From: an uncultured Thermoleophilia bacterium
GTDB lineage: Bacteria; Actinomycetota; Thermoleophilia; UBA2241
Direction of reading: 5' to 3'
Assembly: GCA_963702475.1 (NCBI GenBank)
Contig: CAVPCT010000003.1
Coordinates: forward strand, 288,001-352,000
Length of the DNA: 64,000 nucleotides
The notes under the pieces were generated by a model. It was not told the DNA's origin. It saw only the letters and a program-made list of their open reading frames with translations, and ran no database searches. Of the stretch, positions 24,584-63,525 are shown piece after piece. The translations under genes were made by a program, and so were the position numbers. How positions within the stretch are numbered: position 1 is the stretch's first letter; every line of letters begins with the position of its first letter.

Positions 24584-24652
24584 ACACTAGACGCGACCGG
24601 CTCACTTGTGACCTCGGGAATGTACGGGGCCGAGGGCTCGGGGAACTACGAG
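24584..24652 (-). promoter_or_regulatory. Regulon promoter P1 (receiver/SHOCT/DUF6325 operon)
   Basis: Boxes at 24637-24652 and 24613-24628; GTCACA, 17 bp, TAGTGT. Confidence 0.75.
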
Positions 24653-24745
24653 TGGTCGGGGGTCGAGGCAGGCGACCGGCGAAGGTCCGGGGGGTGCGAA
24701 CGCCGCCGGGCTGCCTCCTCAGGGCTCTTGGTGTAGCTTGGGTGG

Positions 24746-26743
24746 GTGACCACTACGGACGGGACAGACGCGTCGTCGGAGCCTCTCTCGGACCTTCTCG
24801 AGTTCGAGAAGCTCTTCTGCGACGTCTCCACGCAGTTCATCAACCTCGCACCCGGCGAGCTCGACCGTGAGATCGAGGACGTTCAGCGCCGGATCTGCGA
24901 GATCCTCGGCCTCGACGTCTCGGTCCTGTGGGAGTCGGTTGCCGACGACGACTCCGACCTCACGCTGACCCACGTCTACAGCGCCGAACAAGGTCAGGCG
25001 CGACTCATGCTGGGCACGAGAGCGACGGAGTACTACCCCTGGTTCCATGAGCAGATGATGGCCGGCCGCACCGTGGTCGTCTCCACGCTCGACGACCTGC
25101 CCGAGGAGGCCAGCGTCGACCGCCTGAACGGGAGCCTTCTCGGTCTGCGCTCGAACCTGACCGTGCCGCTCGCCGTGGGCGGTCAGCCGCCTATCGGAGC
25201 GCTCGCCTTCAACACCACCAAGGCCGAGCGCGTCTGGCCCCGCGCCCTGGTCACGCGACTCGAGCTGATCGGTCAGGTCTTCGCCGGCGCGCTCGCGCGA
25301 CGGCGCGCCGACGAGGCGTTGCGTGAGAGTCAGGACCGCCTGGCCGTGGCGCTCGACTCGGCCGAGGCGGGGCCGTGGAGCCTGGACTACGGGACGCGGA
25401 TCTTCTGGCTCTCCTCGCAGGCCCGTACGATCTTCGGCTTTGCTGCCGACGAGGTCGTCTCTCTGGACAGGTTGCGCGAGCGGGTGCACGCGGACGATTG
25501 GCGTCTCATCGAGGAGGCGATAGGCGACGCTGCGAGGAGCGGCGAGCTGACCACCGTGGAGTACCGCATCGTCACGCCCGACGGTGGAGTGCGGCACATC
25601 TCGACCCGCGGGAGATTCCACTTCTCCGCGTCGGGAGAGCCGGAGCGCCTCATGGGTGTCACGATCGACGCCACCGAGCGCAGAAATGCGCAGGAGGCCC
25701 TGCTTGCCAGCGAAACGCGTCTGGAGGCAGCGGTCGAACTCGCCGGACTCGCGTTCTACGAGGTGCGTTTTGACGAGGGCACAACATATGTGGACGACCG
25801 CTTCAGGGAGCTCACCGGCCTGCCGCCCGAGCGCGAGCAGGGTCTCGGCGCGCTGGAGTACTGGATCGAGCAGCTCCACCCGGAGGACCGCGAGAGAGTG
25901 CTGGATCAGCGCAGGCTGCTGCACGACGGGAATCTGGAGACGCTGTTCGTCGAGTACCGCTTCCTCGACCCCGTCCGCGGCGAACGATGGTTCCAGCACA
26001 TCGGGCGGATCGCGAGGCGCGATGCGGCCGGCTACGCTGTGCGAGCGTACGGCGTCCTGCGTGACGTCACGGCGCGGCTGCGCGCCGAGAGCGAGATGCA
26101 GGAGCTCAGCCGGCGCCTGCTCACGGCGCAGGAGCAGGAGCGGGCGGTGCTCGCCCGCGAGCTGCACGACGACGTGAGCCAGCGGCTCGCGGTGCTGGCA
26201 ATCGACGTCGGCCGCGCGGAACTCGACGCCTCGGAGGGGCCGCAGGCCGAGGCCATGCAGGGCGTGCGCGAGGGCCTGATGCGCCTGAGCGAGGACGTGC
26301 ACACCATGGCGTACCAGTTGCACCCCTCGATCCTCGAGGAGCTCGGCCTGGCCGAGGCGCTGCGCGCCGAGTGCGAGCGCCGGCACCGCCGGGGCGACCT
26401 GGACGTGGCGGTCGACGTGAAGGCGTTGCCGCCCGGCATACCCGACCACGCGGCGCTCTGCCTGTTCCGCGTCGCCCAGGAGGCGCTCACGAACGTTGCG
26501 CATCACGCCGGCGCGACGGCGGCGAGTGTCTCCCTGCGGGAGGCGGACGGCGGTCTCCTGCTCGCCGTGTCAGATGACGGCCGCGGGTTCGAGGTCGGGG
26601 ACCCAGGCAAGAAGGGACGCCTCGGGCTGGCGAGCATGCGCGAGCGTGTCCTGCTCGTGAACGGCACCCTGGACATCGACAGCGGCCCCGGGCGCGGCAC
26701 GACTGTCTTGGCCTGGGTCCCGCTGGAGAGGGAGGACGCGTGA
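24746..26743 (+). CDS. Cytoplasmic sensor histidine kinase (GAF-PAS-PAS-HisKA_3-HATPase)
   Basis: ERAVLARELHDDVSQ H-box, QEALTNVAHHA, DDGRGF, GLASMRER; two PAS/PAC repeats; no TM helix. Confidence 0.9.
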   Translation: MTTTDGTDASSEPLSDLLEFEKLFCDVSTQFINLAPGELDREIEDVQRRICEILGLDVSVLWESVADDDSDLTLTHVYSAEQGQARLMLGTRATEYYPWFHEQMMAGRTVVVSTLDDLPEEASVDRLNGSLLGLRSNLTVPLAVGGQPPIGALAFNTTKAERVWPRALVTRLELIGQVFAGALARRRADEALRESQDRLAVALDSAEAGPWSLDYGTRIFWLSSQARTIFGFAADEVVSLDRLRERVHADDWRLIEEAIGDAARSGELTTVEYRIVTPDGGVRHISTRGRFHFSASGEPERLMGVTIDATERRNAQEALLASETRLEAAVELAGLAFYEVRFDEGTTYVDDRFRELTGLPPEREQGLGALEYWIEQLHPEDRERVLDQRRLLHDGNLETLFVEYRFLDPVRGERWFQHIGRIARRDAAGYAVRAYGVLRDVTARLRAESEMQELSRRLLTAQEQERAVLARELHDDVSQRLAVLAIDVGRAELDASEGPQAEAMQGVREGLMRLSEDVHTMAYQLHPSILEELGLAEALRAECERRHRRGDLDVAVDVKALPPGIPDHAALCLFRVAQEALTNVAHHAGATAASVSLREADGGLLLAVSDDGRGFEVGDPGKKGRLGLASMRERVLLVNGTLDIDSGPGRGTTVLAWVPLEREDA

Positions 26744-27390
26744 ACCTGCCCCGACGCCCTCGCGTGCTGCTCGCCGACGATCACCTGCTGGTCGCAGAGG
26801 CGCTGAAGAGTCTGCTCAGCGAGGAGTTCGACCTCGTCGGGGTCGTGGAGGACGGCCGCCAGCTGCTCGAGGCGGCGGCCACGCTGCGACCCGACGTCAT
26901 CGTGGCCGACATCACCATGCCGCAGCTCAACGGCATCGACGCGCTGGTGCGGCTGCGGGAGCTGGGTGACCACGTCCCGATGGTGTTTCTCACCATGCAC
27001 CGGGACGTGACGTTCGCGCGGCGCGCGCTCGAAGCGGGCGCGTCGGGCTTCGTCCTCAAGCACTCGGCCTCGACGGAGCTGATCACCGCCATCCACGCCG
27101 CGCTGGACGGCAAGACCTACTTGACGCCGCAGCTCGCCGGTGAGGTCCTGGATGCCATGAGACAGGGGCCGGACCTGACCGCGGACCCGGTCGCGGCGCT
27201 GACGCCGCGCCAGCGGGAGGTGCTTCAGCTGCTCGCCGAGGGGCGCTCGGCCAAGGAGATCGCCACGGCGCTCGGCATCTCGGCGCGGACGGTGGAGTTC
27301 CACAAGTACCAGATGATGGAGACGCTGGACCTGCACACCAACGCCGATCTCGTCCACTTCGCCATCAAGAACGGGATCGTCGAGTTCTGA
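26740..27390 (+). CDS. NarL/FixJ-family DNA-binding response regulator
   Basis: LLADDH, ADITMP; LuxR HTH LTPRQREVLQLLAEGRSAKEIA...TVEFHK. Confidence 0.95.
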   Translation: MNLPRRPRVLLADDHLLVAEALKSLLSEEFDLVGVVEDGRQLLEAAATLRPDVIVADITMPQLNGIDALVRLRELGDHVPMVFLTMHRDVTFARRALEAGASGFVLKHSASTELITAIHAALDGKTYLTPQLAGEVLDAMRQGPDLTADPVAALTPRQREVLQLLAEGRSAKEIATALGISARTVEFHKYQMMETLDLHTNADLVHFAIKNGIVEF

Positions 27391-27432
27391 CGCGCCGGCC
27401 CGGTCCCCGGGCCGGCGCGTCAGAACGTCTGC

Positions 27433-30186
<2,754 letters not shown>

Positions 30187-30196
30187 CTCTCTCCTC

Positions 30197-31171
30197 TCAG
30201 GCCTTGGACTTCGCTTTGCGCTTGTGCTCCCTGCGCTCTTCCTCCTCGAAGGGATCGGCAGCGGCGCCCTCGGGGGCCTGCCGCTCGAGCTCGAGCTTCG
30301 TCTCCTCGAGCTCCTTGCGCACTTCGGGAGTCACGGTCGGGAACCGCGGATCGATCTTGATGAGCGTGTCGGCGATGACGGCCGCGGCGGCGAGGCGGGC
30401 GAACCACTTGTGGTCGGCGGGGATCACATACCACGGAGCCCAGTCGGTGCTGGTCGCGGTGAGCATGTCCGAGAAGGCCTTCTGGTAGTCGTCCCAGTAC
30501 GTGCGCTCGTGCGCGTCGGCGGCCGAGAACTTCCAGTTGTGATCGGGCATGTCGATGCGCCTGAGGAAGCGGCTGCGCTGCTCCTCTTTGGAGAGGTTCA
30601 GCAGCAGTTTGACGACCTTGATGCCGTTGTCGGTCAGGTAGCGCTCCCAGTCGTTGATGTCGCGGTAGCGCCGCTTCCACACGTCGCGGCCACGCGCCTC
30701 CTTGGGCAGCTTCTGGTGCTGCAGGATCTCCTTGTGCACGCGCACCACGAGGACTTCCTCGTAGTAGGAGCGGTTGAAGATGGCGATCTGGCCGCGCTCG
30801 GGCAGGTTCTTGGCGAAGCGCCAGAGGTAGTCGTGGTTGAGTTCCTCAGACGACGGCACCTTGAACGAGTGCACCGCCACACCCTGGGGGTTCACGCCGC
30901 TCATGACGTGACGGATCGTCCCGTCCTTGCCGGCGGCGTCCAGCGCCTGCAGGACCACGAGGACGCCGTACGTGTCCTGTGCCGCCAGCCGCGCCTGGTA
31001 CTCGGCGAGGAGCTCCACGCCGTGCTGGAGGAGCTCCACACTGTCCTTCTTCTTGACGAAGTCGGCTTTGTAGCCGGGATCGAAGTCCTTCTCCAGCTTG
31101 ACCTTCGATCCGGGCTTCACGCGCAGGGGCTCGATGGCCTCGGCAATGCGCTTGACTCTCACATCCGCCAT
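30197..31171 (-). CDS. ppk2: Polyphosphate kinase 2 family (class III-like)
   Basis: QALDAAGKDGTI, FKVPS, FNRSYYE, WKFS, APWYVIPADHKW. Confidence 0.9.
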   Translation of the reverse strand: MADVRVKRIAEAIEPLRVKPGSKVKLEKDFDPGYKADFVKKKDSVELLQHGVELLAEYQARLAAQDTYGVLVVLQALDAAGKDGTIRHVMSGVNPQGVAVHSFKVPSSEELNHDYLWRFAKNLPERGQIAIFNRSYYEEVLVVRVHKEILQHQKLPKEARGRDVWKRRYRDINDWERYLTDNGIKVVKLLLNLSKEEQRSRFLRRIDMPDHNWKFSAADAHERTYWDDYQKAFSDMLTATSTDWAPWYVIPADHKWFARLAAAAVIADTLIKIDPRFPTVTPEVRKELEETKLELERQAPEGAAADPFEEEERREHKRKAKSKA

Positions 31172-31238
31172 GGTGGTCCTCCTTGTCCGGGGCAGTCCCC
31201 GACGCGTCGCGCCACGCGTGGGAGCGTGTTTCCGAACC

Positions 31239-31337
31239 AGCCTAGGAGCCCCATCGGCGGAAATGAACTGGGGATACTACGAGGCCCCTCGCCCCGTACT
31301 ATCCCGAGTTCCCCGCCTCGCGCCCGTGGCCTAGGCT
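31239..31337. promoter_or_regulatory. Back-to-back regulon promoters P2 (ppk2-ATPase, minus) and P3 (small membrane protein, plus)
   Basis: Boxes 31268-31283 and 31293-31308; each followed by a hexamer, 17 bp and TAGGCT (31239-31244 minus; 31332-31337 plus). Confidence 0.75.
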
Positions 31338-31407
31338 CTCCTCGGGCGGATCGATGGTCGGAGTCCGTCCCGCCCGCTCACCTCCGGCCGTTCTGTGGGA
31401 GGCATCA

Positions 31408-31593
31408 ATGAGTCTTTGGTACTGGATGATGTGGATGTTCTGGGTCTTTCTCGCCATCGTGTGCGCCATGTGGTGCGGCGCGATCGCGGACTCCAAGGGC
31501 TACAGCCGCATCCTGTTCACGATCCTCGGCTTCTTCTTCATCATCTTCACGCTCATCGTGGTCTTCATCCTGCCGACCAGACGGACGGCCTGA
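31408..31593 (+). CDS. Small membrane protein (61 aa)
   Basis: GGAGG RBS; MSLWYWMMWMFWVFLAIVCAMWCGAIADSKGYSRILFTILGFFFIIFTLIVVFILPTRRTA; two TM helices. Confidence 0.75.
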   Translation: MSLWYWMMWMFWVFLAIVCAMWCGAIADSKGYSRILFTILGFFFIIFTLIVVFILPTRRTA

Positions 31594-31620
31594 CGGCCTG
31601 ACCACGACAGGTGCCGGATG

Positions 31621-31657
31621 CGGCCGGGCGGAACCCAGGTGAGGTCCCGCCCGGCCG
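31621..31657 (+). terminator. Hairpin after the small membrane protein gene
   Basis: CGGCCGGGCGG...CCGCCCGGCCG. Confidence 0.5.
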
Positions 31658-31669
31658 ATCCCGTTCGTG

Positions 31670-31775
31670 GGCCTCGTAGTTTCCCCGGCCGCGGCCCCGT
31701 ACTATCCCGAGTTCCCGCGCCCTCCGGCCGCGCCTAGGCTTACCTTGAGGCGCCGGTCCCGAGGGCAAGCGGGCC
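31670..31775 (+). repeat. About 100-bp promoter/leader direct repeat, copy 1 (P4)
   Basis: GGCCTCGTAGTTTCCCC..CCGCG.CCCCGTACTATCCCGAGTTCCC...GCCTAGGCT.ACCTTGAGGC..CGGTCCCG; repeated at 32081-32185. Confidence 0.85.
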
Positions 31776-31855
31776 GTCTAGACGCGCCTCGAGGCGTCCA
31801 GCGACGTGCTCGCCCTCCGCTGGAGCAGTGACAACGGACGATACGGAGGTACGGC

Positions 31856-32023
31856 ATGCGTGTCCTCTTGGCAGCGCTGTTCATCGTTGGAGGGATCCTG
31901 CTCGCGCTCCTGATCGTGGGCGTGGTGTTCTCGAACCTCAGGTTCTTCCTCTGGCTCGCGATCATCGGGCTGGTGGTCTGGGGGATCTACATGCTCATCA
32001 CGCGCCCCTGGAGATACAGCTGA
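31856..32023 (+). CDS. Small membrane protein (55 aa, absent from the ORF track)
   Basis: GGAGGT RBS at 31845; MRVLLAALFIVGGILLALLIVGVVFSNLRFFLWLAIIGLVVWGIYMLITRPWRYS. Confidence 0.75.
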   Translation: MRVLLAALFIVGGILLALLIVGVVFSNLRFFLWLAIIGLVVWGIYMLITRPWRYS

Positions 32024-32080
32024 GCGCCCCCTGAGGCTCGAAGAGCACGCCCGGTCCGGCGACCAGGCGATGTGGCCACC

Positions 32081-32185
32081 GGCCTCGTAGTTTCCCCAGC
32101 CGCGACCCCGTACTATCCCGAGTTCCCCTGCCCCCGCGGTCGTGCCTAGGCTCACCTTGAGGCCGGTCCCGCGCCAAGCGGACCG
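32081..32185 (+). repeat. About 100-bp promoter/leader direct repeat, copy 2 (P5)
   Basis: Near-identical to 31670-31775; box 32107-32122, TAGGCT 32147-32152. Confidence 0.85.
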
Positions 32186-32230
32186 CCCCACCCCGTCAGT
32201 GACCATTCGGGAACTCACAAGGAGGGCGCC

Positions 32231-32620
32231 ATGCCCAAGTCAGTCGCGGAGATGGTCGGCGAGGCCAGGGCCATGATCGCGGTTGTCTCGCCGCAGGACG
32301 CCAAGGCCGAGTCGGACGCGGGCGCCGTCGTCTTCCTGGACGTCCGCGAGCCCGTGGAGTGGGAGCACCACGTCACCGGTGCCCTCCAGGTGCCGCGCGG
32401 CCTGCTCGAGTTCGCCGCCGACCCCGCCAGTCCCAGTCACAAGGGAGGGTTGGAGCCCGACGCCAGGGTGATCGTCTACTGCCGCTCCGGCACACGCGCC
32501 GCCCTCGCCACCGCCACGCTCGTGACGCTCGGCTACTCCAACGTCGCCAACCTCGAGGGCGGCTTCAACGCGTGGAAGGAAGCGGGCCTGCCTGTGACCG
32601 AGCACCACGAGGCGTACTGA
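32231..32620 (+). CDS. Rhodanese-like domain protein
   Basis: LDVREPVEW, VPRGLLEF, VYCRSGTRA, LEGGFNAW. Confidence 0.9.
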   Translation: MPKSVAEMVGEARAMIAVVSPQDAKAESDAGAVVFLDVREPVEWEHHVTGALQVPRGLLEFAADPASPSHKGGLEPDARVIVYCRSGTRAALATATLVTLGYSNVANLEGGFNAWKEAGLPVTEHHEAY

Positions 32621-32622
32621 CC

Positions 32623-33504
32623 GTGACGATCCAGGAGCCTGTCGATCATCCACCGCTGGCGGGTCTGACGTTCGTCGTCGCCAGCATGCTGGGGACGGGT
32701 CTGAGCCTGACGGTGTCGCAGATCCTCCAGCCTCTGAAGAACGCACGCCTCGTGATCCTGGCGCTTGTCGCCAACTTCGTGCTGGTACCGCTGGTCGCCT
32801 ATGGGATCACGCTCGTCATCCCGTTGGACGAACCGCTCAAGATAGGCCTCATCGTGCTGGCCACCGCGGCCGGCGCGCCGTTCCTGGTCAAGGAGGTGCA
32901 GGCAGCGAAGGGCGAGCTCTCCGTCGGCGTCGGGCTGATGTTCCTGCTGATGATCGTGACCATCCTCTACGTGCCGCTCGTCCTGCCCCTGCTGCTTCCC
33001 GGCGTCGACGTGGCCGCCGGAGATATCGCCAAGTCCCTGATCGTCACGATGCTCATCCCCCTCGCGCTCGGTCTCCTGTTCCGGTCGCACTCCGCAGAGG
33101 GCGCCGCGCGCTGGGCGCCGGTCATGAACAAGCTGTCCGGCATCGCCCTGCTCCTCATGCTCGTGATGGGCCTGGGCCTCAACATCTCCAGCATCATCGA
33201 CCTGATCGGCTCGTACGGCTTCCTGGCGCTCGTCCTCTTCGTCGTCGCCTCCCTCGCGATCGGCTTCGCCTGCGGAGGGCGGGAAGCGGCCACCCGCAGC
33301 GTGCTGGGGCTGGGCACGGCCCAGCGTAACGTGGCGGCCGCGATCCTCGTGGCGAGCCTGAACTTCGGCGGCACCGCGACGCTGCCCTACATCCTCGTGG
33401 CCTCCATCGTGCTGCCACTGATCCTGCTCCCGGCCGCCAAGGTGCTGGGGAGGCGCAGCGCCGCGATGGCCGGCGAGCAAGGAGAGGGACCTGAGCATGG
33501 CTGA
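32623..33504 (+). CDS. Bile acid:sodium symporter (BASS) family protein
   Basis: ANFVLVP, AAGAPF, GTAQRNVAAA; start uncertain. Confidence 0.8.
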   Translation: MTIQEPVDHPPLAGLTFVVASMLGTGLSLTVSQILQPLKNARLVILALVANFVLVPLVAYGITLVIPLDEPLKIGLIVLATAAGAPFLVKEVQAAKGELSVGVGLMFLLMIVTILYVPLVLPLLLPGVDVAAGDIAKSLIVTMLIPLALGLLFRSHSAEGAARWAPVMNKLSGIALLLMLVMGLGLNISSIIDLIGSYGFLALVLFVVASLAIGFACGGREAATRSVLGLGTAQRNVAAAILVASLNFGGTATLPYILVASIVLPLILLPAAKVLGRRSAAMAGEQGEGPEHG

Positions 33505-34669
33505 GACAGAACGCGTCAGCACCACCGTGCCGCTGGACTGGAACGAGGTGTGGTTCACCAACTGCCCCATGGTGTCCGCCAACAACGTGGACCAGGAGCT
33601 GGGCTGGTGCCGCGAGGAGTTCAAGAAGATCGGCGTCGAGTACGCCTACTTCCGCCACGCCCCCGAGAACAACTGGTACCCGCACTACATCCACAACCTC
33701 GACAACCTCATCCGCTTCGGCGGCCTCTACCCGCCGATCCACGTCAACGCCGACATCCGCCGCACCGTGCTCCTCGGCGCGACCTGGGTCTACGAGGGCG
33801 GCTGCATGGCGGTGCGCGCCCGCGACAAGGTCTTCCGGATGCAGGACCTGAAGGGCAAGAAGATCGGCATCACCAAGAGCCTGAACACCATCAAGAACGA
33901 CTGGTGGCGGATCCAGGAGCACATGGGCATCGAGAACATGCTCATGCTCCACGACATGACCATGGACGACATCGAGCTCGTCGAGTTCCCGTACCCCGAC
34001 GACTGGTACGACAAGCCCGAGATGCTGCCGTGCGCCGATGAACAACCCGTCCGAGCTGTGGATGCGCCGTGACCACAAGCACGACTACGCCTTCCGCCCG
34101 CTGGAGAAGGCGCTCGTCGCCGGCACGGTCGATGCCATCTACACCCAGAGCAAGGTCTTCCAGCACACTCCAGGAGGCCACCGGGCAGATCAAGATCGAT
34201 CGAGGACCTGTCCAAGCTCCCGGACTGGACGCATCCAGGTCGCCAACACCCCCGCCGTCATCACCTGCACCGACGTGATGGCGAACGAGCACCCCGAGCT
34301 CGTCATCGCCTACATGAAGGCCATGATCAAGGTCGGGCGCTGGGCGAACGAGAACAAGCACGCCGCCGGCGCAGATCCTCAACCGGCAGACGTTCTACCT
34401 CGACGCCGAGGACACCTACCAGGGCATCAAGGACGTCGACATGGTGCCCAGCCTGAGCGCGCGGAACCTGGAGTGCGTCAAGATCGGCAAGGACTTCATG
34501 GTCAGCCACGGCTACATCAAGCACGACTTCGACGTGGACGCGTGGGCCCGCCCGGAGTTCCTCGAGCAGGCGGCCGAGGAAGTCCTCAAGGAGGAGTGGG
34601 CAGCGCCGGAGCTGGAGCAAGCTGCCCCAGGGCGGCGGGCTCGAGGTGGAGGGCATGCGGCTCGGGTAG
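33497..34669 (+). CDS. DszB/SsuA-fold protein (desulfinase-like), several frameshifts
   Basis: FTNCP, HYIH...IRFGGLYPP, DLKGKKIG; later frames give ANTPAVIT, KDFMVSHGYIKHDFDVDAW; no signal peptide. Confidence 0.7.
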
Positions 34670-34754
34670 GCAGCGGTCGCCGCACCACGTGGCGGGCCGG
34701 ACCGCGTCCAAGGTCCGGCCGCCCGCGCTTCGAGGACCGAGTGAGGAGACGAGG

Positions 34755-35632
34755 ATGACCGCGACTGTCGAGAGAGCGACACGCGCATGCAGCGACTCGG
34801 CTACCGGGCGCCGGACCGATGTCCCCGAGCCGGAGGAGCTCGTGCTCGGTCGAGTACGTCTCCGGTGGGCAGGATGCGCGATCGTCACCCTCAACCGGCC
34901 GCACGCCGACAACGCGGTCACGACGGAGCTCGCCGCTCAGCTGATCGAGATCCTCGAGACCATCGACGCCCGCGCCTCCGTGCGCGTCGCCATCCTGACC
35001 GAGTGCCGGTGACCGGGCCTTCTCGGTCGGCGGCGACCTGTACCAGCGCAAGCAGATGACCAAGGAGCAGTGGCTGCGCCAGCGCCAGGTCTTCGACCGG
35101 GTGCTGCTACAACGCTGCGGCAGCTGCGCCGGCCGATCATCGCCGCGGTCCACGGCATGGCCTACGGCGGTGGCTGCGAGATGGCCATCAGCATGCGACT
35201 TCATCATCGCGTCCGACGATGCCGTCTTCGGCCAGCCCGAGGCGATGGTCGGCCTGTCCGCCGGCGGTGGCTCCCCGGTCTTCCTGCCCCGGCTCCTCCC
35301 TCCGGGCAGGGCCATGCAGATGCTGATGACCGGAGATCCGATCACGGCCCAGGAGGCCTACCGCCTGGGCATGGTCAACGAGCTCCACCCGCGGGCCGAG
35401 CTGATGGACGCGGTCGTGGCCATCGCGGAGCAGGATCGCGCGCCAACTCGCCGACCGCCGTGCAGGCGGTCAAGCGGGCGGTCAGTCATGGGCCAGGGCG
35501 AGCCGGTCGAGCAGGCGATCGCGATCATGATGGAGTCAGCACTGGCGCTCCGTGGTCCATCCCGACCGCGTCGAGGGCATCAAGGCCTACACCGAGGGTC
35601 GCGAGCCGGTGTTCCCGGACCCGGACTTCTGA
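34755..35632 (+). CDS. Enoyl-CoA hydratase/isomerase, several frameshifts
   Basis: VTLNRP..NA, FSVGGDL, IAAVHGMAYGGGCE, FGQPE, TGDPITAQEAYRLGMVN. Confidence 0.8.
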
Positions 35633-35691
35633 GCTGGAGCAAGCTGCCGCACGGCGGCGGGCTTGAGGTCGAGGGCGTCAGGCTGGGATAG
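35631..35691 (+). repeat. 61-bp remnant paralogous to the 3' end of the DszB-like gene (34609-34669)
   Basis: SWSKLPHGGGLEVEGVRLG* vs SWSKLPQGGGLEVEGMRLG*; 9 mismatches, mostly synonymous. Confidence 0.8.
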
Positions 35692-35733
35692 TCGGGGGAT
35701 CTGTCTGCCGATAGCTCAGAGAACGGAGAGCTG

Positions 35734-36200
35734 ATGAACGACGAAGTCATGGACGAGCTGGGGCCGATCGACTATCTGATCGTCGAGTTCCCGGCCGGCA
35801 AGGCCGACTTCTCCGGCGCGATGGCGGAGAAGCTGAAGGGGCTGGTCGAGGCGGGCATCGTGCGCGTGCTCGACCTGCTCATCATCACCAAGGACGAGGG
35901 CGGCGAGGTCGACGCCTTCGAGCTGCACGAGTTCGAGGACGGAGGCGCCGGCGCACTCCGTGAGATCGGCGCCGAGTTCGCGCAGCTGCTCTCGGAGGAA
36001 GACGTCGCCCACATCGCCGCGGCGCTCGAGCCCGGTACGGTGGCCGCGGCGCTCGTCTGGGAGAACACTTGGGCCGCGCCGTTCGCGGCCTCGATCGCAA
36101 GTCCTGCGGCCGGCTGGTCGGCAGCGGTCGCATCCCCGTGAAGGCGATCCTCGCCGCCGCCGAGGCGGGCGCGGATGCTGCATCGAAGGAAGGAGCTTGA
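35734..36200 (+). CDS. DUF6325-family protein, frameshifted near 36100
   Basis: LGPIDYLIVEFP...VRVLDLL...LVWENTWAAPF...SGRIP. Confidence 0.8.
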
Positions 36201-36201
36201 G

Positions 36202-36393
36202 ATGCCTCTAGGACCAGGACGCAGAGGACCGGGCGTGATCGGGCACCCGGTAGTGCGCACGGCCGCCGTGGTCGCCGTCGTCACCCCCGGGCGCGGCGCG
36301 CCCGGGCCCGGCATGAGGCCGGGGCGCGTCGGCGCGCCGGGCATAGGCGTCAGGCCCGGCCCGGGACCGGGGCGACTCGGCCCGGGACGCTGA
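36202..36393 (+). CDS. Small Gly/Pro/Arg-rich protein
   Basis: AAGGAG RBS; MPLGPGRRGPGVIGHPVVRTAAVVAVV... Confidence 0.55.
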   Translation: MPLGPGRRGPGVIGHPVVRTAAVVAVVTPGRGAPGPGMRPGRVGAPGIGVRPGPGPGRLGPGR

Positions 36394-36507
36394 GCCGACC
36401 GACGGCGGACGGGCGGCGAGCCGGGAGCGGGAGCCCCGAGCGTGACCTTGGGCGGGGACGGGAGCGCGGTCTCTCATCCCCGCCCACTCTGCGTTTCGAC
36501 GCCGTCC

Positions 36508-37205: not shown

Positions 37206-37240
37206 GTCGATCCTCTCTGACGTGAGGAGCATCGGCCGCC

Positions 37241-52056: not shown

Positions 52057-52184
52057 ACAACACGTCTGGCGTCCAGGTCCACGGCGCGCCCACGGCAAGG
52101 ATGCGTTCTCAGGCTCACGTTGCTCCGCGGTGAACGATAGTGGAGCATGCGCCATGGAAGGGGACCGTTCGAGGAGGGGACCGC

Positions 52185-53864
52185 ATGAGCAAGGAATCGA
52201 CGGCCGCGACGGCCGGCGCCGGTACGGCCGCCACGGCGGCCAAGGCGGGCGCCGGCCTCATCCTGTTCACGCTGGCCACCGGCCAGTTCCTCATGACCCT
52301 GGACACGTCGGTCATGAACGTGTCCATCGCCACGGTCGCCAGCGATCTCGGCACGACCGTGACGGGCGTGCAGACCGCCATCACCCTGTACACGCTGGTG
52401 ATGGCCAGCCTCATGGTGCTCGGCGGCAAGATCGGCACGATGATCGGCCGCAAGCGGGCCTTCGCCATCGGCTGCGTCATCTACGGCTGCGGCTCGATGA
52501 CCACCGCCCTCTCGCCCAACCTCACGATCCTCATCATCGGCTGGTCGTTCCTGGAGGGCATCGGCGCCATCCTCATCATGCCGGCCATCGTCGGGCTGGT
52601 GGCCGGCAACTTCCCGCCCGCGGGCAGGCCCAAGGCGTACGGCCTCATCGCCGCCGCCGGCGCCATCGCCGTCGCCGTCGGCCCCGTCATCGGCGGCTTC
52701 ATGACCACGTACTTCTCGTGGCGTTACGTGTTCGCCGGCGAGGTCATCATCGTCATCGCCATCCTCTTCCTGGCGCGACGCGCCGCGGACGAGCCGGCGG
52801 CCGCACGTCCGCACCTCGACCTCATCGGGGTCGTGGTGTCGTCGGCGGGCCTCGCCCTCCTCGTCCTCGGCGTGCTCAAGTCGTCCACGTGGGGCTGGAT
52901 CCTGCCCAACGAGGGCGCGTCCTCGCTCTTCGGCCTCTCGCTGACCCTGTGGTTCATCACCGCCGGGCTCTTCCTGCTGTGGCTGTTCCTGCGCTGGCAA
53001 CGCCGTCTGGAGAACGCCGGCAAGGAGCCGCTCATCGCGCCGGCGCTCTTCAAGCACAAGCAGCTCACCGGCGGCCTCGTCACCTTCCTCTTCCAGTTCC
53101 TCATCCAGGCCGGGGTGTTCTTCATCGTGCCGCTGTTCCTCTCGGTGGTGCTGGGCATGTCGCCGATGGCCACCGGCGTGCGCCTGCTGCCGCTGTCGCT
53201 GTCACTGCTCGTGGCTGCGGTGGGCATCCCGCGCCTGCTGCCGCACGCCAACCCGCGACGCGTCGTGCGCGTCGGCATGCTCGCCCTCGTCGCCGGCATC
53301 GTGGTGCTGATCGCCAGCCTCGAGGTGGGCGTCGACTCCTCCATCGTGTTCGCGCCGATGCTCATCATCGGCTTCGGCATCGGCGCTCTGGCCTCGCAGC
53401 TCGGCAACGTCACCGTGTCCTCCGTGCCGACCGAGAAGAGCGGCGAGGTGGGCGGCCTGCAGAACACCGCCAGCCAGCTGGGCGCGTCGTTCGGCACGGC
53501 GCTGGCGGGCTCGATCCTGATCGCCGCGCTCACGGCGTCGTTCCTCACCGGGATCGAGCAGAATCCCAGCATCCCGCAGAGCGTCAAGGACCAGGCCAAC
53601 GTCAACCTTGCCGCCGGCGCCCCGTTCATGTCGGAGGCAGACCTGGAGAAGCAGATGAAGGAGGCCGGCTACACGCAGGAGCAGATCGACGTCGCTGTGG
53701 AGCAGAACGAGGTCTCGCAGATCGACGGCCTGCGTGCGGCGCTCTCGATCCTCGGCATCATCGGCGTGATCGCGCTGTTCTTCACCGGCAGCATCCCGAA
53801 GCGGCAGCCGGGGTCCGGCCCGGAGCCGCCGCCGGGGGCTGAGGCGGCGCCCGCGGCGGGCTGA
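52185..53864 (+). CDS. MFS transporter (DHA2/EmrB-like)
   Basis: LDTSVMNVSI, GGKIGTMIGRKR, GPVIGG, SWRYVF. Confidence 0.9.
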   Translation: MSKESTAATAGAGTAATAAKAGAGLILFTLATGQFLMTLDTSVMNVSIATVASDLGTTVTGVQTAITLYTLVMASLMVLGGKIGTMIGRKRAFAIGCVIYGCGSMTTALSPNLTILIIGWSFLEGIGAILIMPAIVGLVAGNFPPAGRPKAYGLIAAAGAIAVAVGPVIGGFMTTYFSWRYVFAGEVIIVIAILFLARRAADEPAAARPHLDLIGVVVSSAGLALLVLGVLKSSTWGWILPNEGASSLFGLSLTLWFITAGLFLLWLFLRWQRRLENAGKEPLIAPALFKHKQLTGGLVTFLFQFLIQAGVFFIVPLFLSVVLGMSPMATGVRLLPLSLSLLVAAVGIPRLLPHANPRRVVRVGMLALVAGIVVLIASLEVGVDSSIVFAPMLIIGFGIGALASQLGNVTVSSVPTEKSGEVGGLQNTASQLGASFGTALAGSILIAALTASFLTGIEQNPSIPQSVKDQANVNLAAGAPFMSEADLEKQMKEAGYTQEQIDVAVEQNEVSQIDGLRAALSILGIIGVIALFFTGSIPKRQPGSGPEPPPGAEAAPAAG

Positions 53865-53922: not shown

Positions 53923-55740
53923 TCAGGCGCCGGCCGCCACCCGAGCGGGCCGGCTCGGGCGACTCAGGTCTTCTGCTCCGTCGTCGGGGCGTCGTCGCCG
54001 CCGTGGGTCTGTCTGCTCGCGCCCGTGCCGGCCGCCGGCTTCAGGCGCCGGCGGCAGAGGTCCGAGGGCCTCGACCGCTCGCACCGCCGCCTTCAGCGTC
54101 GGGTAGAAGTGGTCCCGGTCGAGTGTGTCGAAGAGGCCGTAGCTCAGCACGCGGTCCTGGAGCCGGTCGCGGAGCTCGGCGAACGCCAGGTGGACCCCCC
54201 GCGCGTTGAGCTCGTTGTCCAGCTGCTCGAGCATCCCGGCCGCGGTGACGTCGATGTCGGTGACCGCCTCGCACTGCAGGACGATCCAGGCGGGCGACTG
54301 CTCGCGGGCGAGGCGCCGGACCTGCTCACGGAAGATCCCGGAGTTGGCGAAGAAGAGCGGCGCCTCCCAGCGGTACACCACGATCCCCGGACGCTGGCGC
54401 GCGTCCGGATACTTGTCCACGCCGTGCCATCCGGGCAGCCCGTCGACCTGCCCGAGCACGGCCCCATGGGGCCACCAGTTGCGGCGGAAGAACATCAGGA
54501 CCGCGAGGATGACGGCGATGGCGATGCCCCACAGCACGCCGAAGAGGATGACGCCGACGGTGGCGACGAGAGAGAGCGCGAGGGCGCTCTTGCGGACGCG
54601 GAAGTAGCGGCCGAGGATGGCGAGGTCCATCAGCGAGACGGCGGCGAAGATCACGACCGCGGCGAGCGTGGTCTGCGGGAGGTCGGCCAGCAGCGAGGGG
54701 AAGAACAGCAGCATCAGGGCGACGAGGCCGGCGCCCACCAGGCCCGTGACCTGGCTCTTGGCGCCGGATTGTTCGGCCACCGCCGTGCGCGACCCGCTCG
54801 TCGACACCGCGAAGCCCTGGAAGAAGCCCGCGGCGATGTTGGCGGCGCCCATGCCGATCATCTCCTGGTCGGGGTCGACCTCGTCGCCGCGCCTGGCGGC
54901 GAAGCTCGTCGAGGTGGCGATGGTGTCGGTGAGAGAGACCAGGGTGATGCCGACGGCGGCGATGAGCAGAGGCCCCACGTCACTCCAGGTCGTGAAGGGG
55001 AAGGACGGCGTGGGGACGCCCTGCGGCAGGGAACCCACCGTCTTCACGCTCTGCTCGGCGAGCCCGAACACCGCCGACGCGACGGTGGCCCCGACGACCG
55101 CCACCAGCACGGACGGCACGCGGCGCGTGAGCAGCGGGAGCAGGAACAGGACCGCCAGGCACGCCAGCCCGACGGCGAGCGTGGTGGCGTCGGTCTGGTC
55201 GAGGCCGGCGAAGAAGGCCTGCACGTCGTCGATGAACGTGTCCGCGTCGGTCGAGAACCCGAACAGCTTGGGCAGCTGGCCGACGATGATGGTGACGGCC
55301 AGGCCGTTCATGTAGCCGACCTGTACCTCCTTGGAGAGCAGGTCGGCCACGAAGCCGAGCTTGCCGAGGCCCATACCGATCTCGATGAGGCCCACGAACA
55401 CGGCCATCATGCCGGCCAGGGCGATGGCGGTGGCCGGGTCGTCCGTCACCAGCAGCGGCACGATGGCGGCGAAGATCAGGGGCGAGACGGACGAGTCCGG
55501 CCCGAGCACCAGGATCCGCGACGGGCCGAAGATGGCGTACCCGATCAGGCAGGCGATGGTCGTGTAGAGGCCGGTGACGGGAGGCAGCCCGGCCAGCTCC
55601 GCGTAGGCCATCCCCTGCGGGACCAGGATGGCGGCCAGCACGATGCCGGCCACCAGGTCCTTGCGCAGCCAGCGCCGCTCGTAGGAGCGGACCGCTGCCA
55701 CGCCCGGCATCCACCGTGCGATCCCCTCGTGACGCGCCAT
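53923..55740 (-). CDS. SulP/SLC26 anion transporter with STAS domain (second copy)
   Basis: DLVAG, PQGMAYAELAGLPPVTGLY, GSRT, APLFFAN. Confidence 0.9.
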   Translation of the reverse strand: MARHEGIARWMPGVAAVRSYERRWLRKDLVAGIVLAAILVPQGMAYAELAGLPPVTGLYTTIACLIGYAIFGPSRILVLGPDSSVSPLIFAAIVPLLVTDDPATAIALAGMMAVFVGLIEIGMGLGKLGFVADLLSKEVQVGYMNGLAVTIIVGQLPKLFGFSTDADTFIDDVQAFFAGLDQTDATTLAVGLACLAVLFLLPLLTRRVPSVLVAVVGATVASAVFGLAEQSVKTVGSLPQGVPTPSFPFTTWSDVGPLLIAAVGITLVSLTDTIATSTSFAARRGDEVDPDQEMIGMGAANIAAGFFQGFAVSTSGSRTAVAEQSGAKSQVTGLVGAGLVALMLLFFPSLLADLPQTTLAAVVIFAAVSLMDLAILGRYFRVRKSALALSLVATVGVILFGVLWGIAIAVILAVLMFFRRNWWPHGAVLGQVDGLPGWHGVDKYPDARQRPGIVVYRWEAPLFFANSGIFREQVRRLAREQSPAWIVLQCEAVTDIDVTAAGMLEQLDNELNARGVHLAFAELRDRLQDRVLSYGLFDTLDRDHFYPTLKAAVRAVEALGPLPPAPEAGGRHGREQTDPRRRRRPDDGAEDLSRPSRPARVAAGA

Positions 55741-55769
55741 CGCTACCTGCCCTCCCGTCGGCGCGACGG

Positions 55770-56690
55770 TCAGGCGGGTCCGCCGAAGCGCTCGAGCAGC
55801 ACGCCGTGCCGAAGGCCGCGGTCGCTGACCGTCAGGTCGCTCTTCCTGAGTTTGTCCATCACCGTGCGCACGACGCAAGCGCCGGCGAGGATCACGTCGG
55901 CGCGCTTGGGCTGAAGACCGACGATCTGCCGGCGGGCTGCGACGTCGCGCGTCCGGAACAGGTCCAGCTGCCGGTCGACCTCGGCGCGGTCGAGCACTGC
56001 GCCCTGCACCGCATCGGGCTCGTAGTGCTCGAGGCCCAGCATGACCGCCGTCATGTTGGTGATCGCGCCGCCCATGCCGATGAGATGGCCGGGCGGCGGC
56101 TCGCCGTCGAGACGGGAGAACTCGCCGGCGATCGCGGCGAGCGCGTCGTCGAGCTGCTCCCGCGCGATGGTCCCGTCGAGCCCATGCTCGGCCGTGAGCC
56201 GCACAGCGCCGACGTTCAGGCTGTACTGCTCCTCGACGGCGCCGTCACGGCCGTACGTGAACTGGGTGCTGCCGCCGCCGGTGTCGAACACGACCACCCG
56301 GCCCTGGCCCAGGCTCAGGCCGGCTTGGGTCGCCAGGTAGGCGAGCCGGCCTTCCTCCGTGCCGGGGAGCACCTCGATGGAGATCCCACACCGTTCGCGC
56401 ACGTTCGCCATGAACGAGTCGCTGTTCCTCGCTGTGCGCATGCCCATGGTGCCGACCGCGACGAGCCCGGCGACGTCGTGCTGTCGGGCCTCCTCGACCA
56501 TGCCGCAGATAGCGTCTGCGGTGCGCGCGATGGCCTCAGGGGCGATCTCACCCGTCTCGGCGATGCCCTCGCCGAGACGGCTCACCTTCGCCCGGTCGAC
56601 GAGCGTGCTCCACGTGCCGTCGTCGTGCCGCTCGCCGACGTGGAACTTGACCGAGTTGGTGCCGACGTCGATGACCGCAAATGCCGTCAC
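55770..56690 (-). CDS. ppx: Ppx/GppA-family phosphatase
   Basis: IDVGTNS, RLGEG, EEGRL, DTGGGSTQ, RADVILAG, GLRHG. Confidence 0.85.
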   Translation of the reverse strand: MTAFAVIDVGTNSVKFHVGERHDDGTWSTLVDRAKVSRLGEGIAETGEIAPEAIARTADAICGMVEEARQHDVAGLVAVGTMGMRTARNSDSFMANVRERCGISIEVLPGTEEGRLAYLATQAGLSLGQGRVVVFDTGGGSTQFTYGRDGAVEEQYSLNVGAVRLTAEHGLDGTIAREQLDDALAAIAGEFSRLDGEPPPGHLIGMGGAITNMTAVMLGLEHYEPDAVQGAVLDRAEVDRQLDLFRTRDVAARRQIVGLQPKRADVILAGACVVRTVMDKLRKSDLTVSDRGLRHGVLLERFGGPA

Positions 56691-56699
56691 GTGACCACC

Positions 56700-57295
56700 T
56701 CAGTCCTGCATGCCGATGGCGGCCTTGAGCCACCTCGGGTAGCTGGTGTTGGGCCGGTCCAGGAGGCCGAGACCTCGCACCGTCGCGACCACCTGCGCGG
56801 CGTCGGTCGATTCGACGGCCAGCGTGCGCACCTGCCGTCCCTCCGCGGTGACGTCGGTGACCTCGACCATGCACCCGCCGATCGTGTAGTGACGGCGGTG
56901 CTTCCGGACGCGGAACCGCGCGCACGCCCCGGTCCGGTGCGGCGAGCAGCGCAAGGAGATCGTCGCGACGAGAGAGCGTCTGACTTGCGAGGCGGAGCGC
57001 TCACACCGAGGGCGGCGCAGACCTTGAGCGCTTCGCCGTGCGGCAGCGGGAACGACTCCTTGAGGGCCGGCCGCCACTGCTGGAGGCCGGCCTCGTCGAC
57101 GTGCTCGAGGACCTTGACGTCCATGAGGCCGGCGCGGATCTTGACGGCGGCTTCCGCCTCCGGCGATACCAGGTAGACCTCGTCGCTGTCGGCGACGAGG
57201 TCGGGCTCAGCGTCCGGGACAGACAACACCGCGTCCGCCGCCCCCGATGCCGAGCCGAACGTGCGCCACTCCCAGCGCGGGACGATCGTGCTCAT
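56700..57295 (-). CDS. CYTH-like protein, frameshifted near 56970
   Basis: PRWEWRTF, VKIRAGLMDVK, KHRRHY, LAVES, NTSYPR. Confidence 0.65.
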
Positions 57296-57346: not shown

Positions 57347-57414
57347 ACGCTATCGGGAGGGCGGAGACCTGTGACCTCGGAAATCTACGGGGCGCGCGCC
57401 CGCATGACTACGAG
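57347..57414 (-). promoter_or_regulatory. Regulon promoter P8 (CYTH-ppx-SulP)
   Basis: Boxes 57399-57414 (degenerate) and 57376-57391; GTCACA, 17 bp, TAGCGT. Confidence 0.75.
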
Positions 57415-61711: not shown

Positions 61712-63421
61712 TCACAGGGTCGCGAAGATCTCGTGCGCCAGCATGCCGCCGGCGACCGTGCGCGCGGTGAAGCCGTTCTGGAGGAGGATCCGCGTGGCGT
61801 AGTAGGCGCGCTGGCCCGAGCGGCAGACGACGAGGATCTCCTTGTCGCGCGGGAGCTCGTCGAGGCGCCCGCGCAGCTCGTCCACGGGGATGTTGACAAC
61901 ACCGGGGAGCTGCTCGACGGCGAGCTCCTCGGGGTGGCGTACGTCGAGGACGAAGGCGCCGTCCAGCGCGTCCCAGTGCGCGATCGGCATGTCGCCGCGC
62001 AGCACGTTCGCGGCCACCATGCCGGCGAAGTTGGCCGGCGACTTGGCCGCGCCGAACTGCGGCGCGTAGCTGAGCTCGCACTCCTCGAGGTCGTACACGG
62101 TCGCCCCCAGCTGGATCGCCATCGCCAGGGCGTCGATGCGCTTGTCGACGCCCTCCCGGCCCACAGCCTGCGCTCCGAGCAGCGTGCCGTCGGACTTGCG
62201 GAAGAGGATCTTCATGGCGAGGAGGGTCGCGCCCGGGTAGTAGCCGGCGTGCGAGTTGGGGTACAGGTAGACCTTCTCGTAGTCCTCGTCGCCGCGGCGC
62301 TTGAGCGTCTTCTCGTTCAGGCCGGTCCAGGCGACGGCGCCGCCGAAGGCGCCGAGGATCGCGGTGCCCTGCGTGCCGCGGAAGTGAGAGTCCCGGCCGG
62401 CGATGACGTCGGCGGCGATGCGGCCCTGCCGGTTGGCCGGCCCGGCGAGCGCCACCAGGCAGTCCTCGCCGGTCAGGCAGTCCACTTTCTCGACCGCGTC
62501 GCCCACGGCGAAGATGTCGGGGTCGCTGGTGCGCTGCTGGTCGTCAACGCGGATGCCGCCGCGGGCGCCCACCTCGATGCCGGCCATCTCCGCGAGCGCC
62601 GTCTCGGGCTTCACGCCGATGCCAAGGATGACGATGTCGGCGGGGTAGACCTCATCCGGCCCGACGACGACGTCGAGCGAGCCATCGTCCGCCTGCCGGA
62701 ACGCCGACGCTCCTGCGCCCAGAACCACCTTCACGCCGTTCTTGTCGAGGTGGCGCTCAAGATACCGCGCCATCTCCGGGTCGAGCGGGCCCATGATCTG
62801 GTCGCCGCGCTGCAGCAGGGTGACCTCGAAGCCGAGGCCCACCAGGTTCTCCGCCGTCTCGATGCCGATGAACCCGCCTCCGACGACGACCGCGCGGAGC
62901 TCCCGCCGCCGCGTCTGCATGCCGGTGTAGGTGCCGAGCCCGGCCGTCCTGCCGCGCCGCTCCTCGACCCACGTGCGGATCTGGGCGGCGTCGGGGACCG
63001 TCCTCACGCCGAAGATGCCGGGCAGGTCGATGCCGGGCAGCGGCGGGCGGATGGGGGCCGCGCCGGGGGACAGCACCAGCTTGTCGTAGGGCTCCGTGCT
63101 CAACTCGCCGGTCGTCCGGTCCTTGAGCTGCGCGGTCTTGCCGCGCGCGTCGATGCCGACCACCTCGCAGTCCGTGCGTGCATCCACGTTGAACATGTCG
63201 CGGAAGGTGTCCGCTGTGGCGACGAGCAGGCTCGCCTGCTGCTCGATCACGCCGCCGATGTAGTACGGCAGGCCGCAATTGGCGTACGAGACGTAGGGTC
63301 CGCGCTCTACCATGAGGATCCGCGCGGTCTCGTCCAGGCGGCGCAGGCGCGCGGCGCACGAGGCCCCACCTGCCACGCCGCCCACGATGATGACCTTGAT
63401 GCCGTCAGCAGTCTCGTTCAT
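61712..63421 (-). CDS. CoA-disulfide reductase with C-terminal rhodanese domain (persulfide reductase-like)
   Basis: GGVAGG, SYANCGLPY, GGGFIG, FAVGD, YAPQF, VCRSGQRA. Confidence 0.9.
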   Translation of the reverse strand: MNETADGIKVIIVGGVAGGASCAARLRRLDETARILMVERGPYVSYANCGLPYYIGGVIEQQASLLVATADTFRDMFNVDARTDCEVVGIDARGKTAQLKDRTTGELSTEPYDKLVLSPGAAPIRPPLPGIDLPGIFGVRTVPDAAQIRTWVEERRGRTAGLGTYTGMQTRRRELRAVVVGGGFIGIETAENLVGLGFEVTLLQRGDQIMGPLDPEMARYLERHLDKNGVKVVLGAGASAFRQADDGSLDVVVGPDEVYPADIVILGIGVKPETALAEMAGIEVGARGGIRVDDQQRTSDPDIFAVGDAVEKVDCLTGEDCLVALAGPANRQGRIAADVIAGRDSHFRGTQGTAILGAFGGAVAWTGLNEKTLKRRGDEDYEKVYLYPNSHAGYYPGATLLAMKILFRKSDGTLLGAQAVGREGVDKRIDALAMAIQLGATVYDLEECELSYAPQFGAAKSPANFAGMVAANVLRGDMPIAHWDALDGAFVLDVRHPEELAVEQLPGVVNIPVDELRGRLDELPRDKEILVVCRSGQRAYYATRILLQNGFTARTVAGGMLAHEIFATL

Positions 63422-63480
63422 GGCTCCCGTCGCTCCCTTTCGCGAGGCGCCCCTGTGGACGCACCAGACTCTCTCAACCG

Positions 63481-63525
63481 AGGATAGTCAGCCCCCCTGT
63501 GCCTGTGACCTCGGGAAAGTACGAG
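63481..63525 (-). promoter_or_regulatory. Regulon promoter P9
   Basis: Box 63510-63525 (CTCGTACTTTCCCGAG); GTCACA, 17 bp, TATCCT. Confidence 0.75.

Follow-up and report, generated by a model that had tools for sequence, protein, structure and literature searches.

Nine promoters of one rigid design and a linked NarL/FixJ-family two-component system in a genomic island of an uncultured Thermoleophilia bacterium

The island, its signaling genes and its nine promoters

The window analyzed here is the whole stretch C3:288001-352000, 64 kb in length, from an assembly of 4.3 Mb (70% G+C, 9 contigs). It contains a genomic island in which nine promoters of a single design, referred to as P1 to P9, accompany the genes of a two-component system. 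The soluble sensor histidine kinase is encoded at 24746..26743 on the plus strand and is composed of a GAF domain, two PAS domains, HisKA_3 and HATPase_c. The gene for a NarL/FixJ-family response regulator occupies 26740..27390 on the same strand. This regulator, the proposed box-binding protein, combines a receiver domain (Response_reg, 1.4e-26) with a GerE helix-turn-helix (3.1e-18), and its best relatives of solved structure are VraR (5e-30) and NarL (2.3e-27). Its phospho-acceptor, Asp 57 in the segment VIVADITMP, aligns with the conserved Asp of a third protein, a stand-alone receiver (REC) of 132 amino acid residues encoded on the minus strand at 24128..24526 (GTG start at 24526) and driven by P1. 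The stand-alone receiver and the receiver domain of the regulator share 39% identity, and the former retains the Asp, Ser, and Lys of the phosphorylation site. The string TVEFHKY, which by comparison with NarL-family structures presumably lies in the predicted recognition helix of the regulator, is unchanged in 79 of 80 orthologs. The regulator family is large: no fewer than 7,944 protein clusters match at E <= 1e-40, and their names are generic throughout.

The promoters share a layout of a 16-bp box, the hexamer GTCACA or TTCNNN, a spacer of 17 nt (18 nt in P5), and the -10 element TAGNCT. Their coordinates, strands, hexamers, spacers (that of P5 included) and -10 elements were all found to read as given in an earlier note on this DNA. 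P1 extends over 24584..24652 on the minus strand, with a distal box at 24637-24652, a proximal box at 24613-24628, GTCACA at 24607-24612, and TAGTGT at 24584-24589. P2 (31239..31283, minus strand) and P3 (31293..31337, plus strand) are divergent. The box of P2 at 31268-31283 is followed by TTCATT and by the -10 element TAGGCT at 31239-31244, and that of P3 at 31293-31308 by TTCCCC and TAGGCT at 31332-31337. P4 (31673..31740, plus strand) is built from a distal box (31673-31688), a proximal box (31696-31711), TTCCCG, and TAGGCT (31735-31740), and P5 (32084..32152, plus strand) from a distal box (32084-32099), a proximal box (32107-32122), TTCCCC, the 18-nt spacer, and a -10 element at 32147-32152. 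Next are P6 (39870..39914, minus strand), with its box at 39899-39914, GTCACA, and TAGGCT at 39870-39875, and P7 (39979..40048, plus strand), in which a 15-nt distal variant at ~39980-39994 stands before the box at 40004-40019, GTCACA, and TAGCCT at 40043-40048. P8 (57347..57391, minus strand) displays its box at 57376-57391, GTCACA, and TAGCGT at 57347-57352, and P9 (63481..63525, minus strand) a box at 63510-63525, GTCACA, and TATCCT at 63481-63486.

All of the boxes are intergenic, in keeping with the earlier note; its further statement that each promoter points into an operon fails for P3 and P4, which each face a single small membrane open reading frame (ORF). Similarly, a second box 23-25 bp upstream had been ascribed to most of the promoters and is clear at five of the nine. 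P1, P4, and P5 have a direct upstream box 23-24 bp away, and P2 and P3 each have the other's box, inverted, at a distance of 25 bp. The distal elements of P7 and P8 are partial, namely the 15-nt variant and the CTCGTAG half only, respectively, and P6 and P9 are without a second box. The predicted transcription start was placed 7 nt 3' of the -10 element, which puts it at 24577, 31232, 31344, 31747, 32159, 39863, 40055, 57340, and 63474 for P1 to P9, respectively. At all nine promoters a leader of 41-109 nt then runs to a Shine-Dalgarno-like GGAG or GAGG and a start codon.

The motif is confined to the island. The pattern CNCGTASNWTYNCSAG is matched 10 times in the window, as compared to both a mean and a maximum of 0 in 100 dinucleotide-preserving shuffles; nine of the matches are P1-P9, and the one remaining, at 32084-32099, is the distal box of P5. 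A weight matrix for the 16-mer, run against the whole genome, gave 12 matches with scores of 19.4-27.3 bits in C3:312613-351525 (24613-63525 of the window). The best scores elsewhere in the genome were 21.0, 20.4, 19.4, and 19.4 bits, which is about chance level for a genome of this size, and none of these four sites has the hexamer or the -10 element. With a 22-mer matrix of box plus hexamer, nine matches were found in the island and none in the rest of the 4.3-Mb genome. The motif is thus not scattered over the genome, and the proposal that it marks a regulon of the island survives the genome-wide scan. The promoter portion by itself, GTCACA-N17-TANNNT, occurs seven times in the genome, five of these behind a box, and therefore does not constitute a separate promoter class. 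By a reading of the gene map in which operon extents are assumed, the nine promoters precede ~28 of the ~38 island genes, and the phrase "much of the island", by which the earlier note described the reach of the regulator, is a fair one. The block from 43686 to 53864, which has its own TetR gene, is box-free.

Promoter and regulator in related genomes

For a description of the promoter anatomy, the window and 97 related loci supplied 111 distinct promoters. Selection was on the box and on [T/C]A...T only, and because the hexamer and the other positions were ignored in this step, they provide independent observations. The spacer measures 17 nt in 107 of the 111 promoters. The hexamer reads G (90%), T (98%), C (86%), A (91%), C (96%), A (76%), the base before the -10 element is C in 84%, and the -10 consensus is TAG-Y-CT followed by C. 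The box is formed by two inverted heptamers 2 bp apart, CTCGTAG-TT-TCCCGAG, of which only CTCG is common to both halves, and its orientation relative to the promoter is always the same. An upstream element, CCTCGTAATTCCCCAG, is positioned at -24 to -9 relative to the box. At offsets of -27 to -21 an upstream box scores at least 5 bits in 24 of 110 sites versus 0 of 110 at a control offset, with median scores of -3.4 and -30.4, respectively. The second half of this upstream box is degenerate, and no hexamer comes after it. Since the upstream boxes occur without a hexamer, the 16-mer can be regarded as the unit read by the regulator and GTCACA as part of the promoter. On the assumption that +1 lies 7 nt beyond the -10 element, the proximal box would cover -51 to -36 (center at -43.5), and the distal box would be centered at approximately -67.5. 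The layout is of the class II type, with the candidate activator site adjoining a -35-like hexamer and the -10 element at a fixed distance, again in 107/111 promoters.

Two smaller features of the anatomy can be recorded here. The spacer (+22 to +38 of the alignment, 107 promoters) is non-random and displays the weak consensus GCCCTCC-GATCCCGAC. Its segment ATCCCGAC sits 23 bp after TTCCCGAG of the box and looks like a degenerate third half-box; the spacer consensus may reflect only the shared ancestry of orthologous promoters. In two loci labeled Acidobacteriota, L055 (10648-10707) and L059 (1281-1318), three tandem boxes 22 bp apart follow the regulator gene. These lack the GTCACA hexamer and represent a variant layout.

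Within the genus, 54 genomes were surveyed, the source genome included, and a regulator ortholog (E <= 1e-60) was found in 20 of them at 73-85% identity. The composite pattern of box, hexamer, spacer, and TANNNT is present in 21 of the 54: in all 20 genomes with the ortholog and in one of the 34 without it (G057, 76% complete, with a single match). The reversed pattern, used as a control, gave 0 matches in all 54 genomes. The source genome has the most sites, nine; the next has eight, and most have one to three.

A scan of one genome per species revealed 257 encoded relatives of the regulator, and the best 80 loci of these 257 were taken for comparison. Here the relatives are 65-85% identical to the regulator, the G+C content of the loci ranges from 58 to 72%, and at least seven phylum labels are represented. 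These labels, which derive from the record titles of metagenome bins and can be wrong, include Thermoleophilia and other Actinomycetota, Acidobacteriota, Gemmatimonadota, Myxococcota/delta-proteobacteria, beta- and gamma-proteobacteria, Planctomycetota, Verrucomicrobiota, and others. A search of homologous islands for the motif had been suggested in the earlier note, and the 22-mer site with its -10 element is indeed carried by 67 of the 80 loci. Fifty-six of the 80 have a site scoring 16 bits or more in the first 450 nt beyond the stop codon of the regulator gene. The stand-alone receiver is found in 73 loci (median identity 74%) and the kinase in 65 (median identity 55%). Accessory genes are less frequent: the SsuA-like gene is present in 25 loci, the CoA-disulfide reductase-rhodanese gene in 20, and the PPK2 gene in 11. 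Among the first genes behind these promoters the receivers form the largest cluster, with 31 members, and they account for 23 of 91 first ORFs scanned. The TetR gene of the island was found in none of the 80 loci, and apart from the regulator no gene for a DNA-binding protein is conserved alongside the module there. The assignment of the boxes to the regulator at 26740 is accordingly strengthened on three counts, namely the distribution within the genus (20/20 versus 1/34), the site near the regulator stop codon in 56/80 loci, and the position of the regulator as the only DNA-binding protein conserved in the module.

In five Gemmatimonadales-labeled loci (L029, L034, L037, L048, and L050), the gene behind the promoter that follows the regulator gene encodes a DcaP/porin-type outer-membrane protein rather than the receiver. 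Since a porin takes the place of the receiver in these loci, the accessory targets vary by lineage, and porin genes behind the promoter fit Gram-negative hosts for the Gemmatimonadales loci.

A quick tree of the regulators requires 20 label changes as compared to 49.8 in shuffles, and thus the labels cluster. In this tree, for which support is weak, the phyla are nested on very short inner branches, and a Gemmatimonadota clade lies inside an actinobacterial group. The pattern resembles transfer from phylum to phylum with vertical descent thereafter.

Proposed regulator dependence, known systems and alternatives

On the basis of these observations, the nine sites can be interpreted as regulator-dependent promoters of the housekeeping-sigma type that form the local regulon of the two-component system at 24746-27390, a reading to which we assign a probability of roughly 0.78. 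The dependence on the regulator is most likely one of activation. In the mechanism we propose, the soluble GAF-PAS-PAS kinase would respond to an intracellular cue and phosphorylate the NarL/FixJ-family regulator, a dimer of which would then bind the 16-bp imperfect dyad CYCGTAG-TT-TCCCGAG that abuts the -35-like GTCACA. The weaker upstream box, ~24 bp further up, may aid occupancy through cooperative binding. Bound at the proximal box, the regulator would recruit RNA polymerase or stabilize it at the promoter, whose spacer is fixed at 17 nt and whose -10 element is TAGNCT. The induced stand-alone receiver most likely exerts negative feedback on the kinase; by competing for or draining its phosphoryl groups, or by blocking it, the receiver would limit the response.

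A precedent for such a receiver is FixT of Caulobacter crescentus, reported to be a receiver-only feedback inhibitor of FixL that is induced by the pathway. By analogy, the island module also has a receiver-only protein that is proposed to be induced by the pathway and to act on the kinase. There are three differences. The island receiver gene lies directly behind the regulator's own box, not behind an intermediate FixK; its product keeps the phospho-acceptor Asp; and it has two cysteines rather than the 4-Cys Fe-S motif of Caulobacter FixT.

The earlier note had remarked that the core of the box recalls the Sinorhizobium FixJ site. According to a comparative study from 2016, FixJ sites selected in vitro have the consensus sequences GTAGTTTCCC and GTAMGTAG, the Sinorhizobium meliloti fixK site is TAAGTAATTTCCCTTA, and FixJ protects the fixK promoter at -69 to -44 and -57 to -31 (PMC4999443). 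Going by these published sequences, the resemblance is correct, and GTAGTTTCCC is exactly the core of the island box, CTC-GTAGTTTCCC-GAG. The native site TAAGTAATTTCCCTTA and the island box, moreover, both contain GTA-R-TTTCCC within imperfect dyads of 16 bp whose 4-bp flanks are inverted. The experimentally defined TAAGTAATTTCCCTTA occurs once in a 49-kb stretch of pSymA, and the core of the island-box matrix, constructed from uncultured genomes only, ranks it first of ~98,000 positions, with 16.8 bits versus 10.7 bits for the next. The fixJ gene is not located in this 49-kb stretch. The two adjacent FixJ-bound regions reported for fixK, the proximal one reaching the -35 area, resemble the paired island boxes, and the island regulator is likewise a receiver plus GerE protein. 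The outer flanks, in contrast, are CTCG...CGAG in the island and TAAG...CTTA in S. meliloti. Furthermore, on the FixJ model (NF006900) the island regulator reaches 113 bits where the cut-off is 255, and the kinase scores 66 bits versus 850 for the FixL model, over one PAS domain only, and contains GAF and HisKA_3 domains. No fixK or nifA gene (CRP/FNR-type or NifA-type, respectively) was found among the 40 island ORFs scanned. Judged by sequence, then, the island box is of the FixJ type, though with outer flanks of its own, and the regulator and kinase are not FixJ and FixL.

The NarL dimer of Escherichia coli binds a 7-2-7 site consisting of two inverted heptamers with 2 bp between them, and the island box can be read in this fashion as CTCGTAG-TT-TCCCGAG. 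The NarL heptamer sequence differs from the island heptamers, however, and the island halves share only CTCG in a strongly asymmetric site that is always presented to the promoter in one orientation. A further comparison can be made with DevR/DosR, which is also a NarL-family regulator of an actinobacterium with a GAF-containing soluble kinase possessing HisKA_3. The P-type cation ATPase gene ctpF is among the DevR/DosR targets, and a P-type cation ATPase is an island target as well. The Dev box is a 20-bp palindrome, its sequence unlike that of the island box. DevR itself matches the island regulator weakly (1e-18 over the whole protein and 3e-4 over the DNA-binding domain) and is not one of its best matches, the island kinase is GAF-PAS-PAS rather than GAF-GAF, and no universal stress proteins were seen among the island targets. 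The Mycobacterium tuberculosis DevR promoters are reported to have closely packed, cooperatively bound sites, the proximal one overlapping the -35 element; the island promoters are similar in having tandem sites with the proximal one at -35, and the distal box lies 23-25 bp upstream in five of the nine. A DevR/OsdR-type dormancy regulon was dropped as an explanation, given the weak match to DevR and a box unlike the Dev box, with only the layout alike. Assignments of the kinase as NreABC-like or as a haem-PAS oxygen sensor were also rejected. Its four cysteines, at positions 25, 51, 543, and 572, all lie outside of the PAS domains, which are of the PAS_3 type, and no cofactor is indicated. Literature searches with GTAGTTTCCC, with the TVEFHKY string, and with the combination of CoADR-RHD and a two-component system did not retrieve a description of this system.

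Several observations weigh against regulator-dependent activation. The -35 hexamer had been called weak, but it agrees with TTGACA at four of six positions and is not especially so; hence the sequence by itself does not make a need for an activator evident. A generic sigma-70 scan (TTGACA/TATAAT, at least 4/6 each) gave 0 sites in 24000-43900 versus 0.8 expected, so that the sites are called promoters on the strength of the TANNNT-type -10 element together with position and conservation. The helix-turn-helix of the regulator is closer to those of EsrB (1.6e-12) and EL222 (2.9e-12) than to that of FixJ (1.1e-6). No box points into the kinase-regulator operon itself, and 13 of the 80 ortholog loci are without a site at the threshold employed, some of these being short contigs. 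Finally, the co-occurrence arises in part from physical linkage, for the sites and the regulator lie in one island and would be gained or lost together whatever protein binds. Because of this linkage and the non-independence of the relatives, the co-occurrence argues that regulator and sites belong together and not, by itself, for binding.

The alternative that survives best, although we consider it unlikely, is that the regulator binds the boxes and represses, blocking or trapping RNA polymerase at -35, such that the genes would be on when it is unphosphorylated. GTCACA, 17 nt, and TAGNCT, with the four matches to TTGACA already noted, would make a fair promoter alone, and a 2026 paper reports FixJ as a repressor at the nif promoters of R. 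palustris. The box, however, is always situated upstream of the hexamer, which it abuts without covering, in one orientation and at one spacing in 107/111 promoters. Such fixed phasing to the -10 element would be needless for a repressor. The second site lies further upstream still, and the arrangement is that of activated FixJ and DevR promoters.

Somewhat less probable is that the 45-bp unit as a whole is read by another factor, either a dedicated sigma factor or a transcription factor encoded elsewhere. In its favor, the hexamer and the -10 element are conserved as strongly as the box, and the co-occurrence with the regulator could be mere linkage within one island. Yet the scan of the island genes turned up no sigma-factor gene, and only the kinase, regulator, and receiver recur in most of the 80 loci. 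The rarity of GTCACA-N17-TANNNT outside of boxed sites speaks against a separate promoter class, the upstream boxes without a hexamer indicate that the box is a unit of its own, and the box core corresponds to a FixJ-family site documented in the study cited above. That the sites are simply copies of a duplicated promoter cassette, or of a small repeat spread by recombination, without common regulation is highly improbable: P4 and P5 are duplicated together with their leaders, and two promoters of one relative (L003, at 1084 and 3299) have identical spacers, but elsewhere spacers and flanks differ while box, hexamer, and -10 element stay fixed, and the unit keeps its place beside the regulator gene although the loci range from 58 to 72% in G+C and bear many phylum labels.

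In kind, the proposed regulator-dependent set of promoters is an ordinary NarL/FixJ-family regulon. What stands out is a rigid promoter that is conserved along with a three-gene signaling cassette over many phylum labels. It represents an unusually clean natural case in which a single rigid promoter design marks out a regulon. It also takes the range of the FixJ-type site far outside the Alphaproteobacteria and, for a two-component system known from metagenomes only, yields predictions of the regulator, its operator, the promoter, and the target genes that can be tested directly. A broader proposal, for which we see the odds as even, is that kinase, regulator, induced receiver, and promoter together constitute a self-contained signaling cassette that has moved between bacterial phyla. 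Its -35 and -10 parts would work with the housekeeping polymerases of very different hosts, each of which would wire in local genes by acquiring the ~45-bp promoter, and the whole would amount to an abundant circuit for stress or redox responses, so far unstudied, in bacteria of soils and sediments. If the cassette does work across phyla, it has implications for the way in which regulatory circuits withstand horizontal transfer, and it would be a candidate for a portable inducible promoter system.

Predicted target genes and other features of the window

Apart from P1, which faces the receiver gene, the promoters lead into genes of varied annotation. P2 precedes, on the minus strand, the genes for PPK2 (30197-31171) and a P-type cation ATPase (27433-30186). 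On the plus strand, P3 is followed by a small membrane ORF at 31408-31593 (hydrophobic, ~61 amino acids; the longest frame begins at 31354) and P4 by a hydrophobic membrane ORF of 55 amino acids at 31856-32023. Behind P5, also on the plus strand, are genes for a rhodanese (32231-32620), an SBF transporter, a frameshifted SsuA/NMT1-like protein, an enoyl-CoA hydratase, and a DUF6325 protein, extending to ~36141. P6 faces a DUF2254 gene on the minus strand that is split in this assembly. The P7 genes (40096-43646, plus strand) are a small ORF, followed by genes for DUF6325, DUF7144, DUF1269, and TMEM175 proteins and an unknown gene. P8 is followed on the minus strand by an unknown gene (56687-57295) and the genes for Ppx/GppA (55770-56690) and SulP (53923-55878). 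On the same strand, P9 precedes genes for a CoA-disulfide reductase-rhodanese (61712-63421), SMP-30, SDR, and SCP2 proteins, and a glycogen-debranching-type enzyme (to 57533).

Judging from the gene names, the targets suggest maintenance under energy or redox stress. They fall into groups concerned with polyphosphate use (PPK2 and Ppx/GppA), glycogen breakdown, ion homeostasis (the P-type ATPase and the K+ channel), and sulfur transfer (the rhodanese, the CoA-disulfide reductase-rhodanese, the SsuA-like protein, and SulP), together with the small membrane proteins. Of the Na+/H+ exchanger genes, a fragment lies at the far end of a possible P6 string, and a full copy lies in the box-less block. 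The window holds two TMEM175-type potassium channel genes, at 17477-18130 (minus strand) and 42151-42849 (plus strand), and only the second is behind a box promoter.

P4 and P5 (window 31655-32230) are duplicates of each other, and the duplication takes in ~45 nt of leader (CTAGGCTYACCTTGAGGC..CGGTCCC..CAAGCGG). An Rfam search of the window revealed no RNA family at this shared leader.

Several island genes appear to be frameshifted. The SsuA-like and enoyl-CoA hydratase genes are distributed over three ORFs (33497-35691), the DUF2254 gene is in two parts (38650-39780), and the Na+/H+ exchanger fragment occupies 37699-38250. In the ORF at 56687-57295, the C-terminal half looks out of frame. 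Contigs of relatives, from a public run, are without single bases at 34197, 34373, 35002, and 35106. The frame breaks in the island may thus be assembly indels and not real pseudogenes.

Outside of the island, the gene for an MttB-family methyltransferase at 13162-14634 (plus strand) contains an in-frame TAG at 14140-14142, and the halves on either side of it match positions 32-337 and 345-492 of the Pfam MTTB model. The sole Rfam match in the window, PYLIS_3 (14140-14239, 52.3 bits), begins at this TAG codon. Contig C3 of the source genome also encodes PylS (314.6 bits) and PylD (209 bits), both above their cut-offs. From the in-frame TAG, the PYLIS_3 match, and the presence of PylS and PylD, it follows that the source genome, the genus relatives of which are labeled Actinomycetota, probably uses pyrrolysine.

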